NCBI GenBank assembly: GCA_963781585.1
Contig: CAWAGQ010000007.1
Span: 288,001 to 352,000 of the forward strand
Length of the DNA stretch: 64,000 nt
Source of the DNA: an uncultured Gemmatimonadaceae bacterium
GTDB lineage: Bacteria; Gemmatimonadota; Gemmatimonadetes; Gemmatimonadales; Gemmatimonadaceae
Direction: 5' to 3'
Both the position numbers and the translations under genes were made by a program. The notes beneath the pieces were generated by a model. That model had not been told where the DNA came from, ran no database searches, and was given only the letters and a program-made list of their open reading frames with translations. Below, piece by piece: positions 54,772-64,000 of the stretch (within the stretch, counting starts at the first letter, position 1; every line of letters begins with the position of its first letter).

Positions 54772-54878
54772 ATGCGAGCGGGCGATGTCTCGAAGCTACG
54801 CCTGCTCCCGGTGTGTGGCGAGTAGTGGCGATCCAGCGCGCGCGTTCCTCCGAATCGGTGTCGGGGAACGGCCGACAC

Positions 54879-54928
54879 TTGACGTGGTGGCCGGCCATCC
54901 CTATGCTCCACTCACAACGTGAGTGGAG
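54879..54928 (+). promoter_or_regulatory. sigma70-type promoter and perfect palindromic operator of padR
   Basis: TTGACG (54879)-N17-TATGCT (54902); CTCCACTCAC-AAC-GTGAGTGGAG at 54906-54928 covers the likely TSS and RBS. Confidence 0.75.
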
Positions 54929-54933
54929 AGACC

Positions 54934-55278
54934 ATGGATCGCGCGCCGGCCGACATGCTGCGGGGCACCGTCGATCTGCTCGTCCTCAAGACGCTGAGCT
55001 GGGGTGAGATGCACGGCTACGCGATCTCCGAATGGCTGCGCGAGCGGAGCGACGGCGCGCTGCGGGTCGAGGATGCCGCGCTCTACCAGGCCCTCCACCG
55101 TCTGGAGCGTCAGGGTGTGATCGCCTCGGAGTGGGGCGCGTCGGAGAACAACCGGCGGGCGCGCTACTATCGTCTCACGGCACGCGGCCGGGCGCGGCTC
55201 CGCGCCGACGGGACCGCGTTCCGCGATTTCGCGCGGGCGGTGCTGGTGGTGCTCGACGCGCGTGTCCAGGGAGCGTGA
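54934..55278 (+). CDS. PadR family transcriptional regulator
   Basis: LRGTVDLLVLKTL, MHGYAI, ALYQALHRLE, WGASENNRRARYYRLT. Confidence 0.93.
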   Translation: MDRAPADMLRGTVDLLVLKTLSWGEMHGYAISEWLRERSDGALRVEDAALYQALHRLERQGVIASEWGASENNRRARYYRLTARGRARLRADGTAFRDFARAVLVVLDARVQGA

Positions 55279-55283
55279 GACCG

Positions 55284-57820
55284 ATGTCGCCTGACGAGGC
55301 GGGGCGCCGGGCACGTTTCCATCTCCCCGGCCGGACTGATTCGCAGATCCGCCGCGAGATCGGCGAAGAGCTGGAGTTCCACATCGCGGCGCGCGCGGCG
55401 GCACTCGTCAGGCAGGGAATCGATCCCCAGCAGGCCCGGGCCGGCGCCGAGCGCGAATTCGGCGACATCGAGCGCACGCGGGCGTACTGCGCCGCGCAGG
55501 ACAGCGCGGTCGAGCGGGCGCGTCGGCGCGCGGCCTGGCACCGGGATCTGTCAAGCGACCTGCGCGTAGCGGTCCGCTCGGCCGGCCGCCGTCCGCTGCA
55601 CGCGGCGGTGGCGATCGCTACGCTCGCACTGGGCCTGGCATCGGTGCTCGCCATGAGCACGGTAGTGCGGCGGCTGGTGCTGTCGCCGAACCCGTATCCC
55701 GGGGGTGACCGGCTGGTCACGATCTGGCAGCAGCCGCCCGGGGGCGGCGACGTGCTGCTGCTTCCCTTCAGCGACGCTGCCGACGCGTGGCGCGTGCGCG
55801 CCACCACGCTCGAAGGGGTGGAGGACAACCGGCCGCGGGGCCCGGATGCTGCTCGACGACGGCGGGGACGCGGCTCTGGTGAGCGTGGCCGCGTGCGACG
55901 AGCGGCTGTTGTCGTTCCTGGGAATGACCGTGGCGCGCGGCCGCGGATTCACGGCCGACGACCGGCGTGCGGGAGCGCCGGCGGTGGCGCTCATCAGCCA
56001 CGCGCTCTGGCGGCGCCGCTTTGCCAGCGCGCCGGACATCGTGGGCCGGCACATCCGACTCGACGACGCTCAGGTCGAGATCGCGGGCGTGGCGCCGCCG
56101 GACTTGCGCGGCGTGCCGGGCCTGGGAATCCAAATCGATGTCTGGCTTCCGGCGGCGACGAGCGTGGCGCAACGGACGCCATGGTTCGTCGTCGCCCGAC
56201 TGCGTCCTGGCGTGTCGGCCGCCACCGCGGGAAAGGAAGCGACCGATATCCTGCAATCCCTGGTCGGCGGCCCGCCGCTCGCCCGCGGCACCGCCACGGT
56301 GCAGACGGCGCGTGATCTGCTTGGCGCTCGGCGCGTCGCGGTGGCGCATCGCGCGATTGAGTCTCGCCGAAGCGCTGGTGATGGGAGCGGCAGCCTTTGT
56401 GCTCCACCTGCCGCTTTCGGTCGCACTGATGCGCGCAGCGGCGCTGTCGCGACCGGAAGCCCTCTGGATGCTCGATCGCGTTTCGCCTGATGGTCGCGTG
56501 CTGCTCGCCGGTGCGTTAGGCACGATGCTGCTGACGGCTGGCTGCGCGCTGGCGGCGATGTGGAGCGGCGTCCCTCGCGATTTCACGCCGCTGCGCAGCG
56601 GCGAGGCGTCGGCCACGCCGGGCACGCATCGCCTGCGCCGAGTGCTCATCACCGCCGAAGTCGCGCTGGCCTGCGTGCTGGTGGTGGGGGCGGTGCTCCT
56701 CGGGCGTTCGTTCGTCGCGCTGGTGCGGCGCGACCCGGGGTTCCGTCCCGACGGCGCGCTGATCCTCACCCTCAGACCGCCGCCAGCCTCCGGAGCAAGG
56801 CCCGCCATCCGGGGAGACGATCCACGCTGGGAAACACTGGTGCGGGCGATCGAGGCGCAGCCGGGCATTGTTGGCGCCACGCGCGGTGTCTCGATGCCGC
56901 CGGAGAGCGGCATCGAGTTCGGGCAGCTCGAGATCGAGGGACGCGAGACGACCGGCGACCAGGGGGCCGCGACCGCCTCGGCGAGTTACGTGTCGGCAGG
57001 ATTCTTCCGGCTGGCTGGCATCCGGCTGATCGAGGGTGCCGACTTCCCCACGGGACTGACGACATCGGAGCAGCCGGTGATCATCAACCGATCGATGGCG
57101 CGGCGATTCTGGCCGACCGGCGGTGCGGTGGGAGCCCGGATCCGGTTCACGGTTCGCGGAAGCCGACAACAGGCGCCGCCGTGGCACCGCGTGGTTGGCG
57201 TGGCTGACGACGTTCTGGCGCAGGGACTCCACTCCGACGAACGCGCCATTCACGTCTACCACACTATGACCGAGTTCGGCGGCACGCCCGAGTACTTCGT
57301 GCGCTTCCGCGGCGCGCGCGACGCCGCGGCGCGACAGGTGCGTGCCATCGTTCACGAGGTGACGCCAGACGTTGCGGTCGAGAAGGTGTCGTTCGCGGAC
57401 GACCTGCTCCTGGAGAGTGCGCGCGCCGATCGCTTCTATCTGATCGTCCTCGGAGTCATCGCGGTGCTGGCCGGGTCGCTGGCAATCGTCGGTGTGTTCG
57501 GCGTGGTGGCCAGCATCACCCTGCAGCGCACCCGCGAGATTGCCGTCCGCATCGCGCTCGGCTCCACGCCGGCGCGCATCTACACGACGGTGATCGGCGA
57601 CGGGATGCGGGCGGTGTTGCTTGGTCTGGCGATTGGTATCGCCGGTGCGGGGGCGCTCGGACACGCGTTGCGAGCGCTGCTGTACGGCGTGAACGCGGAC
57701 GATCCCATCGCGTTCGCAATCGCGGTGGTGCTGATCGCTGCTGCCGCAACGGGTGCCTGCGTTTTTCCCGCGCGACGCGCGGCGCGGTTGGAACCGGCGG
57801 CCGTATTGCGGTCGGAGTAG
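55284..57820 (+). CDS. ADOP-type duplicated ABC permease, frameshifted, with apparent internal deletion
   Basis: EIGEELEFH...REFGD prefix, AEVALACVLVVGAVLL, REIAVRIALG, PARRAARLEPAAVLRSE; breaks near 55830 and 56325. Confidence 0.85.
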
Positions 57821-57831
57821 GTTGGCCGACG

Positions 57832-58254
57832 CTAGGTTTCGCGAGGACGGCGCAGCAAACGATCCAGCGACAGCTCGCCCGCGCCAAGAGCGGCGATGGT
57901 CAGGCAGGCTCCAAGCAGCGTGAGCTCGAACTCGTAGCCATATGGCGTGAAAAACCCGCCCTTGAACCGCGCCACCGGAATCGCGACCGACATCTCGATC
58001 GCCAGCAGCAAACCCACCCACCGGGCCTGGAACCCCAACAGGATCGCCAGCCCGCCGAACGGCTCGAGCACGAGGAGAATCAGCGCAAAAAACGTCGGGA
58101 TGGGGAACCCGAGTTTGGCGAGCATGTCTGTCACTCCGGAGAGGCCGAAGTAGAAGAGCTTTTGCCCACCGTGCATGAGAAAGACCAGTGCCACCACAAG
58201 CCGAAGTGGCACCAGTCCCCACCGCTCGAGACTACCGCCAGCCGTCTTCGTCAT
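57832..58254 (-). CDS. DoxX family inner-membrane protein
   Basis: LRLVVALVFLMHGGQKL, EPFGGLAILLGFQAR, GYEFELTL, GAGELSLD. Confidence 0.9.
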   Translation of the reverse strand: MTKTAGGSLERWGLVPLRLVVALVFLMHGGQKLFYFGLSGVTDMLAKLGFPIPTFFALILLVLEPFGGLAILLGFQARWVGLLLAIEMSVAIPVARFKGGFFTPYGYEFELTLLGACLTIAALGAGELSLDRLLRRPRET

Positions 58255-58292
58255 GCTGACCTTCCGTGCCGCAATCGAGTGAGCATGCAGGC

Positions 58293-59699
58293 CTAGAATG
58301 CGAACCAGATGTACAGGTACAGCGCGTCATTATCGCGCGCGTTCCGGCCGGCGGCGGACACATCGTAGGAAGTCGCCGACCCGTTGAACCGCTGGTACAG
58401 TACGTACTGTAGTCCCAGACGCGTGTTGAGCCACGGATTCACGGCGAACTCGACGATCTCACCGCTCGTCCGTGGACTCCCCGACCGGCTTCCGCTCACC
58501 GGTGCGGCGGTGTACTGCAAAACATCTCGCGATCCAGTCGTGGCGAAATACGCCAACGAGGTGGAATAGGTGGTCCCGAAGCCGTAGAGCGCGCTCAGGC
58601 GCAGGGAATTCAGCGAGTTGGATCCATTCGCGGATGCCGGCGGCGAGAGCGCGCGGGATCCGGCCGGCGATTGCCGTTCGTGCGTGAAGCTTGCTCGACC
58701 AACTATCAGACGATTGTTCCTCTCGTGTTCGATTTGCGCGTCCACCCCGACATCGGTGTAGCCGTTCGCCGGCGTCGATGACCCTGCAGGGTAGACGTGC
58801 GCCCAGAGACCGAACGTCCCGACCATCAGGTAGAAGGGTCCGGTGCGATTCTGCAATGCCACACGCCAGTACGGCGCGATGCCTCGCGTCGTATTGGCTT
58901 CTGTGGAATCGACCAGCGTACGTGGTCCCTGCGGGGCCGAGGCGTACCCAGTCACCTCGGCGTACAGCATGTTGCCGATCAAGGCGTAGCCACCCAGGCC
59001 GAGAACCGATTGCGCGAGCGCACCGTCCACGACGGGGGCGGCGCTCGGGTGCGGTGCGAGCCCCGGCGACGTGAATGGATAGCTCCACGCCGGCGCAGTG
59101 TTCCACACGTCCTGCACGGTCGGATTGTTGTGCAGGGTCAGGCCGTACAGCACATCCTGTTGCCCCACCCTCGTGTGCGACGCGAAGCGCAGGTCCGAAT
59201 TGTCGATCCCGATCTTTCCACTGATGTCCTCGTAGGTCACCTGGATCAACGTCCCCAGCTTTGGGCTGATCTCTCCGCCCAGAAACAGGCTCAATTCCTG
59301 CGGATACTCGCTGCGCGCAGCCGGTGTCCCCGGCAGAGCCTTCCGCACTCGCGTCGCCGAGACGACCGCCATGAGCGACAGGCCAGGTATTGGCGAGAGC
59401 TCGAGTGACCTCCGCGACGCGCTGTCCAGCTGTTCGACGATCTGCGGAAGGCCGGACAGCGTATACCCGTTGAGTTTGAAGAGCCGCCCGAAACGCGTGA
59501 GTTGCGGGAATCCTCCCAGGTGGCAAACGGCGCAACTGAGCTTCATCTGCCGCGCGAAGGAGGGAGTGCGTGCGGCCACGCGGCGAGCGAGCGCCGCGAC
59601 GGGCACTGGATGGCTGCCCTCGCGAGCGGCTTCGTGGTGCGCTCGCGGTATGCTTGCGACGACCGAAAGCGCTGCGGACAGGGTCAGCACGCCCTTCAT
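58293..59699 (-). CDS. cyc2: Cyc2-like monoheme cytochrome c-porin fusion (copy B, 468 aa)
   Basis: Signal peptide; TPSFARQMKLSCAVCHLGGFPQLTRFGRLFKLNGY; beta-strand-rich body; terminal LYLYIWFAF. Confidence 0.75.
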   Translation of the reverse strand: MKGVLTLSAALSVVASIPRAHHEAAREGSHPVPVAALARRVAARTPSFARQMKLSCAVCHLGGFPQLTRFGRLFKLNGYTLSGLPQIVEQLDSASRRSLELSPIPGLSLMAVVSATRVRKALPGTPAARSEYPQELSLFLGGEISPKLGTLIQVTYEDISGKIGIDNSDLRFASHTRVGQQDVLYGLTLHNNPTVQDVWNTAPAWSYPFTSPGLAPHPSAAPVVDGALAQSVLGLGGYALIGNMLYAEVTGYASAPQGPRTLVDSTEANTTRGIAPYWRVALQNRTGPFYLMVGTFGLWAHVYPAGSSTPANGYTDVGVDAQIEHERNNRLIVGRASFTHERQSPAGSRALSPPASANGSNSLNSLRLSALYGFGTTYSTSLAYFATTGSRDVLQYTAAPVSGSRSGSPRTSGEIVEFAVNPWLNTRLGLQYVLYQRFNGSATSYDVSAAGRNARDNDALYLYIWFAF

Positions 59700-60082
59700 G
59701 GCTTCACCTTGCCCTGGCCGACCGACCACACGTAGGACGCCACACTGAGGGCGTCGGAGCGCGAGATGCCGCCGGGAAAGGCGACCATGAGCGTCGAAGG
59801 GACGCCATGGGTAACCACGAAGAAGATGTTCTTGAATTCACCGTTCTTGGCGTCTCGCCACTTGTGCGCCTTGAGTGTCGGCGCGACCTGCGTGCCCTCG
59901 AGGTGCGGGCCGTGACAGGCGAAACACGTCCCCTTGCCGTGAAAGATCGCGCGGCCCGCGTCGACCATCACCGGAGTGATGGCACTGGTGTCAGGTTCGG
60001 CCGGCACGGCTTGCTGCCCCCCTTGCCAGAGAATAGCCAGCAGCGCGCACGCGGACGCCAGTCGACCCTGAGGCCGCCACAT
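59696..60082 (-). CDS. periplasmic monoheme cytochrome c
   Basis: Signal peptide; GRAIFHGKGTCFACHG; candidate distal Met in GVPSTLMVAF; ATGA overlap with the downstream gene. Confidence 0.92.
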   Translation of the reverse strand: MWRPQGRLASACALLAILWQGGQQAVPAEPDTSAITPVMVDAGRAIFHGKGTCFACHGPHLEGTQVAPTLKAHKWRDAKNGEFKNIFFVVTHGVPSTLMVAFPGGISRSDALSVASYVWSVGQGKVKP

Positions 60083-60104
60083 CGTGAGGTCGATCGCTGG
60101 AGGG

Positions 60105-61505
60105 CTAGTACGCGAACCAGAGGTAGAGATACAGCGTGTTGTTGTCGTGCGCGCTGCGACCGTTCGGCGTCACGTCATACGCCGAAGACGATCCGTTGAA
60201 CTTCTGATAAATGACGTACTGGGCGCCAAGTCGCACATTCAGCCAGGGGTTCACCGTAAGCTCGACAGTTTCTCCGGAACTCGCCGGACTTCCAGTGCGG
60301 CTTCCGGTCACCGGCGCCGTGTCGTAGAGCACATGATCGGTCGAACCGGACACACCGAAGTACCCAACTGTGAGCGTCTTCTGCTGGTCAGGGAGGAACG
60401 ACAGGTTGAACTTGTAGGAGTTCAACTTGTTCGAGTTGTGTTCGGCCTCGTCCGCCGGGAATGACGCTGACAGCGTCTGGCTCTCGTGGATGTAGCTTGC
60501 GCGACCGATGAGCATGCCGTTCCCGACCTTGTGCTCGAGCTGGCCATCGACGCCGACGTCCGTGAAGTGATTGGTGGGCCCGATGATGCCGGTGGGGTAG
60601 ATCTGCGCGGAGAGTCCGAACGCCCCGAGCATGAGGTACGACGATCCGAAGTCGTGCTGCACAGCAAGGCGCCAGTAGGGAGAGACGGTCCGGGTCGTAT
60701 TCTCGGCGCTGTCGTCCAGCGGCAGCGTCGTCCCCTGTGGCGCGGCCACATATCCCGTGAGTTCGGCGTAAACCGTGTTGTCGATGAGCGAGTACGCTCC
60801 CAACCCGAGCACCGACTGCGCCAGCGCATCTTCGATGACGGTCGCCGCCGCGGGTGTCGGAGCCACGCTCGCCGAGGTGAAGGGGTAACTCCACGCCGGC
60901 GTCGAGTTCCACACGTCCTGCACCGTGGGGTTGTTGTGCAGCGTCACACCGTAGAGGAGATCGCGGTCGTGTATCATGGTGTGACTGGCGAAGCGAATGT
61001 CGATATTGTCGATCCCGATCGTCCCCGCCTGATCCTCGTAGGTGAATTGGCTGAAGATGCCCATCTTGGGCGCGATGGCCGATGCGGCGAACAGACTGAT
61101 CTCCTGGGGAAACTGCGCCGTCAGGGTCTGGCTGTTTGGAGTCGCCGTGGCGATGTGCGTCTCGTCGATGATCGCCATCAGGGAAATCGGCGCGATTGGC
61201 AAGAGCTGGAGCTGCGTCGCCGACGCGCTGTCCTTCTGGGCGACAATAGACTCCAGTCCGTTCAGCGTGTATCCGTTGAGCTTGAAGAGGCGGCCAAATG
61301 GCGTGAGTTGCGGAAACCCGTTGTGGCACGCGGTGCAGGCAAGCTTCGTCTGCCGCGAAAAGCTCGGAACCCGCAAGCGGGCGACCACCGCAGCAAACGC
61401 CGCGTGGCTCCCGATCTCCGGTGCAGTCGAACTGGGCCGGACCGCGCCCGTACGAGGGGCCGTTCCCAGGTGCAGCGTGGTGACAATGGCGGCGAACATC
61501 AGCAT
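60105..61505 (-). CDS. cyc2: Cyc2-like monoheme cytochrome c-porin fusion (copy A, 466 aa)
   Basis: VPSFSRQTKLACTACHNGFPQLTPFGRLFKLNGY; beta-barrel-like body; terminal LYLYLWFAY; GGAG RBS before ATG 61505. Confidence 0.75.
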   Translation of the reverse strand: MLMFAAIVTTLHLGTAPRTGAVRPSSTAPEIGSHAAFAAVVARLRVPSFSRQTKLACTACHNGFPQLTPFGRLFKLNGYTLNGLESIVAQKDSASATQLQLLPIAPISLMAIIDETHIATATPNSQTLTAQFPQEISLFAASAIAPKMGIFSQFTYEDQAGTIGIDNIDIRFASHTMIHDRDLLYGVTLHNNPTVQDVWNSTPAWSYPFTSASVAPTPAAATVIEDALAQSVLGLGAYSLIDNTVYAELTGYVAAPQGTTLPLDDSAENTTRTVSPYWRLAVQHDFGSSYLMLGAFGLSAQIYPTGIIGPTNHFTDVGVDGQLEHKVGNGMLIGRASYIHESQTLSASFPADEAEHNSNKLNSYKFNLSFLPDQQKTLTVGYFGVSGSTDHVLYDTAPVTGSRTGSPASSGETVELTVNPWLNVRLGAQYVIYQKFNGSSSAYDVTPNGRSAHDNNTLYLYLWFAY

Positions 61506-62003
61506 GGGGAGCTCCGTGGCTGAAACTTCAGCAGGATGAAGCCAGCATCGACGCCTGCGAGAATCTCCGAGGCCGCGTCGGCGCGTCAAGTCCCGCGGGT
61601 GCGAATCACAATTCGGGACAGTTGCCCGCATCGGGGTCTTCCGTTGCCCAGCGCGATGGGGACCTACGTCACCTGGGCGAAGGTGACCGACAACAGACTG
61701 AAGGATAGTGGGAAATGCCAGACACCGTGTCGGGGATCTCCCGACAAGGCGAGACACGCTGGATTGACGCATCGCGCCGCCGCCCCGCTGCAGAGTTCCG
61801 CCAGGCGCCGGGCGCCTCGCTTCGTGCGAAGAAAGGCAGCAGGCTCGTGCCTAACGAATTGGAATCATGCGTCTCGCGGACATTTCACGGCGCTATGCCG
61901 CAGTACTTGATCGCTGGCGTTCTTATTGCGCGCCACACCCTGCACGGGCGCTGACCGCACAGGACGCTGCGTCACGAGCGCAATTCGTCAGGTACGCACG
62001 AGC

Positions 62004-62079: not shown

Positions 62080-62619
62080 ATGGCTGACCTGGATATCACG
62101 TCCAGCTCCACGAACACGGTCGATGTCGTCGGTCTGAATGACATCAAGGCGGATCTCAAGCTCGAGTTGCCGCAGCCGCTGAAGACCGAGTCGTCGTACG
62201 ACTACGACATCAAGGCCGAGGTCGGTACGAAGTCGGATCTTGCGATCGAGCCGCTCAAGGCCGATCTCGGGACCACATCGCGGCTGGCAATCGATCCCCT
62301 CAAGACCGACAGCAGCGTCACCCTCGACCTGAAGCCGGCGGTGGTGGACCTCTGCCTCACGCTGAACATCGGCAAGGTGCCGAGCGTGTGCATCCGCCAG
62401 CCCTACTACCATCACTTCGGATTCACGCTCTTCGGCACCGAGGTCTGGGGGTTCACCGTATCGGGCGAGCAGGAGACGGTGGTGCAGGAGCTGGACCGCC
62501 ATCCGCACGTTGCGGTCGGCAGCGCGACTCCGCGCTGGCCGTCGCCGCATGCGTCGTCCCCAGCGGGCCAGCCGCCGACTCGTCACGCCGGCGGACTCCG
62601 GATCCGCATCGGGCCCTAA
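62080..62619 (+). CDS. hypothetical protein with 15-aa internal repeats
   Basis: IKAEVGTKSDLAIEP / LKADLGTTSRLAIDP; strong GC3 codon bias; no signal peptide. Confidence 0.8.
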   Translation: MADLDITSSSTNTVDVVGLNDIKADLKLELPQPLKTESSYDYDIKAEVGTKSDLAIEPLKADLGTTSRLAIDPLKTDSSVTLDLKPAVVDLCLTLNIGKVPSVCIRQPYYHHFGFTLFGTEVWGFTVSGEQETVVQELDRHPHVAVGSATPRWPSPHASSPAGQPPTRHAGGLRIRIGP

Positions 62620-62630
62620 CGAGACAGCAT

Positions 62631-63515
62631 GTGCCCGAGTCGCCTCCCGCTCCCCTCCGCATCGTCGGAGTCTCCGAGGCCGAGCCCATTCTGCTCAGTG
62701 GGCCGCCAGGCAGGCTGAGCGGTCGCGTCCAGCTTCAGAATCCACGCGGCGTCAGTCTCGTTTTCCGCGACGCGACGCTGAGGGATCCGTCCGGCGTCCT
62801 CACCGGCCGCCCATCGCGTCACGCTTCCGGACCGATCGTGTTGCGCCCGGCGCAGGAGCGGACAGTCCCGCTCAACGTGGCCGTCGATCCAACTACTCCT
62901 CCCGGGGACTACCGGGCCGAGGTCGACTTGATGGGCCAGTCGCGTCCGGCGCTGCTGCGCGTGGCGGAGGTGTTCGATCTGACCGTGCAGCCTGACACGC
63001 TCGTCATCGACAACCGCGCCGACAGGCCACAGCAGAAACGTGTCATCGTCACCAACGACGGGAATGTCCCATTCACGGTCGGTGACATCGGCGATGTGGG
63101 ACTCCGCGATGACGTCATCTGGGAAAGGGACCTGCGGCTCATCGTCCAGCCGTGGATCAGGAGAGACCCGGATGCCGACGAGCTCTGCAGCGCATTGCTC
63201 GCGCTGGCGCGCGAGCGAACCCCTCCCGTGAGCGTCGTTTCGGTGCGCAGTGCCGATGGAGCGGTGCACGTGCGCCCGGGAGAGACCGCCACCCTCGATC
63301 TCGCGATCACGCTCCGGGACGCTCTGCCGGCCGCCGGACGATTTCGCGGTCGTGCCGCTCTGTTGACCAGGGATCTCGACATTGTCGTCGTTTCGTCAGG
63401 CGGCCACGGGCACCACGAGGGTCCGCACCCACCGGCCCGACGCGCCGCCTTTACGCCGCCGTCCGCCAGAACTGAATCGACCAAGCCCACCAGGAAGCGA
63501 GGAGGTGGAACGTGA
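62631..63515 (+). CDS. hypothetical protein, probably two Ig-like beta-sandwich domains
   Basis: VQLQNP...VLRPAQERTVPLNVAVDPTTPPGDYRAEV and IVTNDGNVPF...VRPGETATLDLAITL...GRFRG. Confidence 0.75.
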   Translation: MPESPPAPLRIVGVSEAEPILLSGPPGRLSGRVQLQNPRGVSLVFRDATLRDPSGVLTGRPSRHASGPIVLRPAQERTVPLNVAVDPTTPPGDYRAEVDLMGQSRPALLRVAEVFDLTVQPDTLVIDNRADRPQQKRVIVTNDGNVPFTVGDIGDVGLRDDVIWERDLRLIVQPWIRRDPDADELCSALLALARERTPPVSVVSVRSADGAVHVRPGETATLDLAITLRDALPAAGRFRGRAALLTRDLDIVVVSSGGHGHHEGPHPPARRAAFTPPSARTESTKPTRKRGGGT

Positions 63516-64000
63516 ACGCCACCATGACAGGCACGACGCCCGACTGGATGAACCTGACATTTTCCGACTGGATGGAGCGGACGCTGCCCGGGTGGCAGGA
63601 CCGAAGCTACGGCGATCTCCTGCGGGCCACGCCCGCTGACTGGTGGGCCATGATGTATCCGTCCACGGCGACGACCGCCACACCGCCGTCGCCGTCGAAG
63701 CCCGGCTGGCGTCGACACCCGCACCATCACCACGCCGGCTGCGGCTGCCACGAACATGGCGAGCATCGTGAATGGCGGCGTGAAGAACAGCACCATCACG
63801 ATCGTCCCTGCGGCCGCTGCGCGCCTGATTCGTGCGAGTGCTTCTGCTGCATTGGAGACGTCGACCTGGCGGTCTACGCACGGCTCGGTGAGCAGCGGGT
63901 CATTCCGATCGTGGTGGAAAACGAGCGGCGTCGTGAGAAGGAGATCAGCCTCGAGCTCAGCGGCTGGACCACCCGCGGCGGAAAGCCGGCGCCAATCGAC
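63512..64000 (+). CDS. His/Cys-rich hypothetical protein, 3' truncated by the window edge
   Basis: Not in the ORF track; GTGA overlap with the previous stop and GGAGG RBS; HPHHHHAGCGCHEHGEH...HHHDRPCGRCAPDSCECFCCIGDVDL. Confidence 0.8.
   Translation, partial: MNATMTGTTPDWMNLTFSDWMERTLPGWQDRSYGDLLRATPADWWAMMYPSTATTATPPSPSKPGWRRHPHHHHAGCGCHEHGEHREWRREEQHHHDRPCGRCAPDSCECFCCIGDVDLAVYARLGEQRVIPIVVENERRREKEISLELSGWTTRGGKPAPID

Follow-up and report, generated by a model that had tools for sequence, protein, structure and literature searches.

What two tandem cyc2-like genes do in an uncultured Gemmatimonadaceae bacterium, and in which direction their products would move electrons, is the question raised by a four-gene cluster at positions 57832–61505 of the window, a 64,000-nucleotide stretch of contig CAWAGQ010000007.1. 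The cluster comprises cyc2A, a cytochrome c gene, cyc2B and doxX. The gene cyc2 serves as a marker for iron oxidation, yet most of its homologues occur in heterotrophs and are of unverified function. Our analysis assigns both large proteins to the Cyc2 family, describes a modular set of partner genes around cyc2 in one bacterial order, and places the cluster in a predicted low-oxygen regulon. The explanation that we favour, with somewhat less than even confidence, is a low-oxygen-induced electron port that would pass single electrons from dissolved Fe(II) via cytochrome c to cytochrome-c-fed sinks.

All four open reading frames are intact and lie on the minus strand, with successive spacings of 22 bp, a 4-bp ATGA overlap between the cytochrome c gene and cyc2B, and 38 bp. 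The sequence-only reading, an earlier interpretation of this DNA, had likewise described four co-oriented, tightly spaced genes free of frameshifts. The cluster is probably co-transcribed; a sigma-70 scan returned no promoter, and the one terminator-like site, within doxX, fell under the shuffle mean. The host genome is 93.5% complete with 7.2% contamination. Since the contig carrying the cluster is 487 kb long and relatives have the cluster too, an assembly artefact is excluded.

Cyc2A (60105–61505, minus strand, 466 aa) and Cyc2B (58293–59699, minus strand, 468 aa) both carry the signature PSF(S/A)RQxxxxCxxCH followed by PQLTxFGRLFKLNGY, and are 55% identical over 423 residues in a near-gapless alignment. 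Each contains a single CxxCH, at residue 57 in Cyc2A (57–61) and 56 in Cyc2B, and no cysteine beyond the two of this motif. Direct inspection revealed short hydrophobic N-termini and a C-terminal aromatic residue, Tyr or Phe; the N-terminal signature and the terminal aromatic residue reported earlier for both proteins are present. Keffer et al. (PMC8406198) describe Cyc2 proteins as longer than 365 aa, with one CxxCH, the motifs AxPxFAR[Q/K][T/Y] and PxL, and a 16-strand OprP-like barrel. Both proteins agree with this description in length, motif and single heme site. VPSFSRQT (A) and TPSFARQM (B) precede CxxCH with one or two departures each from the consensus, PQL follows it, and the spacing between motif and CxxCH equals that in Acidithiobacillus Cyc2. 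The alignment singles out no distal heme ligand: Lys75 is found in 135 of 136 rows, and Met110 in 106 of 136 but not in Acidithiobacillus. Nine of the 121 aligned proteins make up a conserved B clade, separate from A, which includes Cyc2B and is diagnosed by the substitution T53M, which yields ARQM, and by one Gly inserted after CxxCH.

The AlphaFold2 model of Cyc2A, based on the 136-row alignment, exhibits 16 long strands with a pLDDT of 91.8. Its best VIA fold match is OprP (Z 21.9, rmsd 4.1, 326 residues aligned), tied with other porins, and Foldseek also placed general porins at the top; no solved Cyc2 appears among the fold matches listed for Cyc2A. The beta-barrel anticipated by the sequence-only reading is thus predicted for Cyc2A, on which the structure check was run, and the near-gapless identity suggests that Cyc2B would adopt the same barrel. 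The Cyc2 likeness is not a chance resemblance, since 5161 of 8000 scored candidates in the homologue search were homologous at E ≤ 0.001 and the model of Cyc2A contains the 16 long strands. Named homologues and Atlas clusters belong to Gemmatimonadota. Neither protein was assigned to a Pfam or NCBIfam family at E ≤ 0.1, and a sequence search of the PDB produced no match for the Cyc2 protein and one chance match for the profile.

To place the proteins among the Cyc2 clusters, we used as references the cyc2 genes from the rus operons of A. ferrivorans, A. ferriphilus, A. ferrianus and A. ferruginosus, obtained by a pattern scan that returned 23 loci, with A. ferrooxidans not among them. The four proteins align end to end with both A and B at 29–33% identity (E 1e-49 to 1e-55). 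Across 401 Pseudomonadota genomes, the family profile gave full-length matches at E ≤ 1e-114 (Acidithiobacillus included, plus one split match), the remainder being weak, mostly N-terminal matches with E-values of at least 4e-31. An IQ-TREE analysis of 35 sequences, in which 14 of the weak profile matches formed the outgroup as unnamed stand-ins for clusters 1 and 3, grouped the Cyc2 proteins of Gemmatimonadota with those of Acidithiobacillus and of heterotrophic Pseudomonadota in a single clade with an ultrafast bootstrap (UFBoot) value of 100; the Gemmatimonadota subclade reached 96 and the A and B subclades 100 each. The corresponding clade received a support of just 0.69 in FastTree with a larger set. 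Judged by sequence, Cyc2A and Cyc2B are ordinary members of cluster 2 as defined by McAllister et al. (PMC7029218), and the proposed family membership stands. A placement in cluster 3 was rejected on the grounds of the Acidithiobacillus alignments, the profile split and the trees. Mariprofundus PV-1 Cyc2 (cluster 1) and Cyt572 (cluster 3) share the fused monoheme cytochrome-porin design and the OprP-like 16-strand barrel (PMC8406198). The stand-ins for these clusters, which have short RQT and RKY motifs, align mostly at the N-terminus with E 1e-13 or weaker and fall in separate clades.

The closest characterised system is the rus operon of Acidithiobacillus (cyc2-cyc1-cup-coxBA...), which resembles the present cluster in the N-terminal heme motif and its spacing, in clade and in a periplasmic cytochrome c encoded after cyc2. 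In contrast to the rus operon, the present cluster contains two tandem paralogues, a monoheme instead of a diheme partner and no oxidase genes; DoxX or DUF6789 is an optional extra, no RuBisCO was found in the host and the predicted control is of a NarL-type, low-oxygen kind. A second comparison is offered by cyc2 with a c-type cytochrome in heterotrophic Pseudomonadota (Caballeronia, Paraburkholderia, Ideonella, Methylocystis, Acidiphilium and Polymorphobacter plasmids), whose proteins belong to the same cluster at 30–40% identity. A cytochrome c gene adjoins cyc2 in all six annotated records viewed, but cyc2 is there a single copy, the cytochrome partners differ and no DoxX is found among the annotated neighbours. 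Upstream of these genes, FNR-like boxes were detected in two of seven loci and the Gemmatimonadaceae box described below in none of seven. The two FNR-like boxes (L071, L072) are found on plasmids of Caballeronia and Acidiphilium, in each case 5' of a cyc2 homologue, which in Acidiphilium lies beside U32-peptidase ubiquinone genes.

Upstream of cyc2A, 242 bp before its start, lies a 21-bp palindromic box (61727–61747) that the earlier interpretation did not contain, a predicted operator of a NarL/LuxR-type low-oxygen regulator. The box emerged from a de novo search by expectation maximisation on 62 non-redundant 400-bp regions upstream of cyc2 (out of 127), in which the consensus GTCaGGG-WWW-CCCtGAC reached a log-likelihood of 218, compared with 45 and 52 in two shuffles. 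Scored with a matrix trained without the window, the site has 19.4 bits and is the top site of the window. In the host genome, 0.7% of the called genes (42/5696) have a site of at least 13 bits within 400 bp, and 12 sites reach at least 18 bits versus 2.9 expected. Seven of the 15 best host sites precede cyc2A, a kinase/regulator pair, a 2-oxoacid:ferredoxin oxidoreductase, a NiFe hydrogenase, a multiheme cluster, a NirK-like gene (below the TIGR02376 cut-off) and a cytochrome c gene with clade II nosZ. The host ccoNO genes have a 13.5-bit site, and the aa3, bd and ACIII-like operons have none above 9 bits.

Further tests of the box used genes outside the training set, with the host itself and a single locus short of upstream sequence excluded where needed. 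The box precedes ccoN, encoding the cbb3 oxidase, within 500 bp in 19 of 23 relatives (coding controls, 0), and aa3 coxB in 4 of 29 (best 30 of 78 genomes). It lies before nosZ within 1.5 kb in 18 of 28 and within 500 bp in 10 of 28 (control 1/28; best 30 of 74), and before the NarL-type regulator operon in 16 of 29, versus 1 of 29 downstream (best 30 of 127). For cyc2 itself the count is 26 of 36 family loci, which are partly training data. A strict pattern search of G441 found 8 sites against 5 in the control, a difference that is weak alone; two of the sites adjoin the kinase/regulator pair and an 8-heme gene. The cbb3 oxidase, NosZ, and hydrogenases and ferredoxin oxidoreductases of the kinds found here serve growth at low oxygen. 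Since the box is common to the cbb3 oxidase, nosZ and the NarL-type operon and seldom precedes aa3, the cluster is likely part of a predicted low-oxygen regulon. The box also predicts nosZ control in Gemmatimonadaceae. Among the open-access papers listed for cyc2 and FNR regulons and for DosR in Gemmatimonadota, none deals with this regulon.

A candidate regulator is encoded at C10:139846-141706 of the host (L177:5846-7706), where a HisKA_3 kinase and a NarL-type regulator (C10:141047-141706) form an operon preceded by the box. Of 151 family genomes, 127 contain the regulator, and nosZ or cyc2 is frequently encoded no more than about 10 kb away from it. The regulator may be the protein that binds the box and senses O2, and the cluster would be induced at low O2. 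The kinase/regulator pair adjoins an Acg-like nitroreductase, a universal stress protein and a pyridoxamine-oxidase-like gene. The NarL/LuxR-type regulator, the HisKA_3 kinase, the Acg-like nitroreductase neighbour and the box on its own operon recall the DosR/DevR, NreC and FixJ regulons. Unlike in those regulons, Pfam detects neither a PAS or GAF domain nor a heme domain in the kinase, and the targets include the cbb3 oxidase, nosZ and cyc2.

The conservation of the partners was assessed from genome surveys. Homologues of cyc2 are common in the order: of 401 genomes of the phylum, 76 contain a match, almost all of them from three of the order's families, and of 401 genomes of the family, 75 do. 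Both tallies count the unpublished genomes G157 and G612, which enter no other claim. A double copy at a single locus was found in four of the 75 positive family genomes (the host G000, G307, G441 and G623, in the last of which the contig ends in A), and the full A-cytc-B-doxX order in 4 of 79 metagenome loci (L081, L082, L085, L086), with parts of it in four more. The exact order is rare, at four of the 75 positive family genomes. A separate tandem, cyc2-cytc-cyc2-cytc, was observed at L048 (G185:C36), both of its copies lying outside the A and B clades. The description of the lineage as one not known for iron oxidation is fair, but cyc2 in metagenome-assembled genomes of Gemmatimonadota is already in print (PMC11316326, PMC9769843, PMC13055281). 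What is new here is the box with its predicted low-oxygen role. Among the papers listed in searches of the open-access literature, none was found on the tandem cyc2 pair, the DoxX/DUF6789 or cytochrome/cupredoxin swaps, or the operator; the one paper in which cyc2 and DoxX came up together is unrelated, and the one on DUF6789 concerns a nematode.

Neighbours within 1.5 kb of cyc2 were recorded at 60 genome loci, chosen from the stronger cyc2 matches rather than at random, nine of which had less than 1.5 kb of flank on one side. Cytochrome c alone was found at 16 loci, with DoxX at 12, with DUF6789 at 12 and with a cupredoxin at 1; of the others, 9 had a cupredoxin only, 1 DUF6789 only and 9 none of these. 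A carrier, cytochrome c or cupredoxin, thus accompanies cyc2 at 50 of the 60 loci, and both at one, which supports the suggested one-electron carrier in the periplasm. At L115 and L117, both from metagenomes, a cupredoxin is combined with DoxX and cytochrome c. In the window, the putative carrier is a class I monoheme cytochrome c (59696–60082, minus strand, 128 aa), which scores above the Pfam cut-offs of PF13442 and PF00034 and has an invariant CxxCH (53–57) and Met99 for His/Met coordination; it is likely periplasmic.

This distribution bears on a different explanation, namely that the cluster has no role in energy conservation and slowly oxidises Fe(II), Cu(I), Mn(II) or reduced humics, whether to detoxify, to handle metals or to sense the redox state, which would be relevant when anoxia raises Fe(II). 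The patchy presence of cyc2 in the family agrees with such a role, as do the variable neighbours (universal stress proteins and phosphoketolase among them), the lack of a fixed sink that tracks cyc2 and the occurrence of plasmid-borne homologues in heterotrophs from soil and plants. We nevertheless consider this role improbable, given that a dedicated one-electron carrier is kept at 50 loci, that the box is common to respiratory operons, and that the neighbour families present in at least 3 of 40 loci included no conspicuous siderophore or TonB partner.

The fourth gene, doxX (57832–58254, minus strand), encodes a membrane protein of 140 aa with four hydrophobic segments, modelled as four helices, and with invariant Arg18, His28, Lys32, Glu64 and Met88; His28 and Met88 are invariant in 87 sequences. 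The protein matches DoxX (PF07681) with 65 bits against a cut-off of 23.6, and DoxD (PF04173) with 18.9 bits against a cut-off of 22.7 (E 0.0016). It is consequently a distant relative, below the family cut-off, of the DoxD subunit of thiosulfate:quinone oxidoreductase, and no DoxA-like gene is present in the cluster. A fold search at E ≤ 0.001 returned nothing and no solved redox relative; the best weak row was NACHO/TMEM35A, an assembly factor (E 0.27). DoxX adjoins cyc2 at 12 of the 60 loci and DUF6789 at 13, both together at none and neither at 35; in 24 of these 25 cases the pairing is with cytochrome c. The DoxX subfamily, with 55–76% identity, is found beside cyc2 in four gene orders. 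Hence, the proposed tie of DoxX to cyc2 holds in several gene orders, while that to DoxD does not reach family membership. DoxX is a conserved, optional member, which we read as a partner of the cytochrome c and not as a required link. The DUF6789 membrane protein, with two conserved His, occupies the place of DoxX beside cyc2 at L057, L060, L064-L068, L168, L170, L171, L173, L176 and L037.

The sequence-only reading had proposed a complete inward conduit, from the outer membrane via cytochrome c into quinone through DoxX. In its favour are the recurrence of the A-cytc-B-doxX order in the three other genomes and four metagenome loci named above and the association of the DoxX subfamily with cyc2. 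The potentials reported for two characterised Cyc2 hemes are 208 and 560 mV, and those of quinones range from -110 to +110 mV (PMC8406198). Because of these values, inward flow from a Cyc2 heme to quinone is likely uphill for hemes like the two measured. DoxX is, moreover, absent from 48 of the 60 loci, and more than half of the loci have neither DoxX nor DUF6789; it is not a DoxD by the family cut-off, and the ACIII-like and cytochrome b/multiheme complexes of the host could perform reverse transfer. We therefore regard a complete conduit with DoxX as its inner end as very improbable.

Should DoxX connect quinone with cytochrome c, the same potentials (PMC8406198) would make the outward direction the downhill one. 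Under O2 limitation, DoxX or DUF6789 would then oxidise quinol, and the electrons would leave through cytochrome c and Cyc2 to a high-potential soluble acceptor such as chelated Fe(III), Mn(III) or oxidised humics. Such an export valve is consistent with the mutual exclusion of DoxX and DUF6789, with their near-constant pairing with cytochrome c and absence from cupredoxin-only loci, and with the retention of candidate heme ligands, His28 and Met88 in DoxX and two His in the DUF6789 consensus. The box also precedes the hydrogenase and the 2-oxoacid:ferredoxin oxidoreductase, both electron suppliers, and 9 of 15 cyc2-positive genomes have neither ccoN nor nosZ. On the other hand, 35 loci have neither DoxX nor DUF6789 nearby, no Cyc2 is shown to act as a reductase in the papers cited here, DoxX has no solved redox relative at the threshold given above, bufD (doxX) is dispensable in the bufferin system (PMC11626156), and a separate boxed multiheme cluster in the host could export electrons. 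Overall, the valve is unlikely, but it is the main rival of the favoured explanation. Slightly less probable is its more specific form, a cluster-2 Cyc2 run in reverse as a minimal low-oxygen export line, with DoxX and DUF6789 as interchangeable, hitherto unrecognised quinol:cytochrome c oxidoreductases and the conserved paralogues A and B providing two heme potentials or a mixed porin oligomer.

The boxed multiheme cluster lies at C10:123291-128131 of the host (L185:8291-13131), where it directly follows the ccm genes and is preceded by an 18.4-bit box. It consists of an 8-heme cytochrome, a 596-aa open reading frame and a 16-heme cytochrome; the Atlas clusters nearest to the 596-aa product that have a family are outer-membrane barrels, and the locus is likely a second porin-cytochrome conduit. 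Further multiheme clusters of the host are located at C7:42074-48961 and C7:446455-453996.

The favoured explanation, an electron port for dissolved Fe(II) induced at low oxygen, combines the family assignment with the predicted regulon. At low O2, the NarL-type regulator would act at the box and induce cyc2A-cytc-cyc2B-doxX together with the cbb3 oxidase and nosZ. The Cyc2 heme would take single electrons from dissolved Fe(II) at the outer membrane and pass them to the His/Met cytochrome c, by analogy with cyc2-cyc1 of Acidithiobacillus. From there, the electrons could reach the cbb3 oxidase, clade II NosZ or the NirK-like protein, all with a box, or the aa3 oxidase. DoxX would be an optional partner of cytochrome c; the inward route to the cbb3 oxidase, NosZ or NirK would need no DoxX. 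Besides clade II NosZ, a NirK-like protein and Ccm, the host possesses oxidases of the aa3, cbb3 and bd types and an ACIII-like operon. Since no RuBisCO was found, the electrons would represent a side income for a heterotroph. Fe(II) oxidation has been reported for members of all three Cyc2 clusters (PMC8406198) and for one further expressed Cyc2 (PMC13647500), and the inward direction from Fe(II) fits all Cyc2 proteins tested in these two papers. Fe(II) as the substrate and the inward direction are the least certain parts of the model.

Several observations weigh against this electron port. The nearest outside relatives, at 30–40% identity, include heterotrophs (Ralstonia, Caballeronia and Methylocystis) that are not known to oxidise iron. 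The proposed sinks do not accompany cyc2: nosZ is present in 8 of 28 cyc2-positive versus 65 of 121 cyc2-negative family genomes and ccoN in 5 of 15 versus 20 of 65, and the nine positive genomes lacking both also count here. These tallies derive from single queries of incomplete genomes, with G157 and G480 left out and G419 treated as a non-match. A fixed Fe(II)-to-N2O coupling as a family-wide rule was rejected, nosZ being less frequent in cyc2-positive genomes. The pairing of DoxX or DUF6789 with cytochrome c is left unexplained by the model. With respect to the box, three of the 15 best host sites lie before genes of no clear low-oxygen role, which encode a GGDEF-EAL protein, a penicillin-binding protein and a V-type ATPase; another five have no assigned gene, and 5.7 sites of the 15-best score are expected by chance in the host genome. 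The box precedes cyc2 in just 2 of 20 loci of other families, it lies between divergent genes and could also serve the gene at 62080, and the counts cover related genomes, in which kin are not independent. Finally, the function of Cyc2 in clusters 2 and 3 is described as unverified far from tested members (PMC8406198).

The consequences depend on direction. If electrons flow inward, common Gemmatimonadota would contribute to microoxic Fe(II) oxidation; if they flow outward, cluster-2 cyc2 would mislead as a marker of iron oxidation. In either case, one order presents a modular cassette, with either cytochrome c or a cupredoxin and optionally either DoxX or DUF6789, under a predicted low-oxygen operator, and DoxX and DUF6789, two domain families, gain a candidate redox role. 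The operator, which also precedes genes of the cbb3 oxidase and of N2O reductase, points to the condition in which the cassette could be tested; together with the modular partners, this predicted control makes substrate and direction directly testable and the cluster worth following up.

The remaining features of the window flank the cluster. At 62080-64000, divergent genes encode proteins of 179 aa and 299 aa, and a third gene runs off the window; the intergenic region containing the box is common to these genes and cyc2A. The 179-aa and 299-aa products, the two that were scanned, had no Pfam family above cut-off. On the other side, at 54858-54878, a second palindrome of 14.7 bits lies 5' of a PadR gene. 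Within 54919-57820, the PadR gene is followed by a MacB/FtsX permease that is seemingly split over three reading frames (55032, 55705 and 55967) and may be frameshifted.

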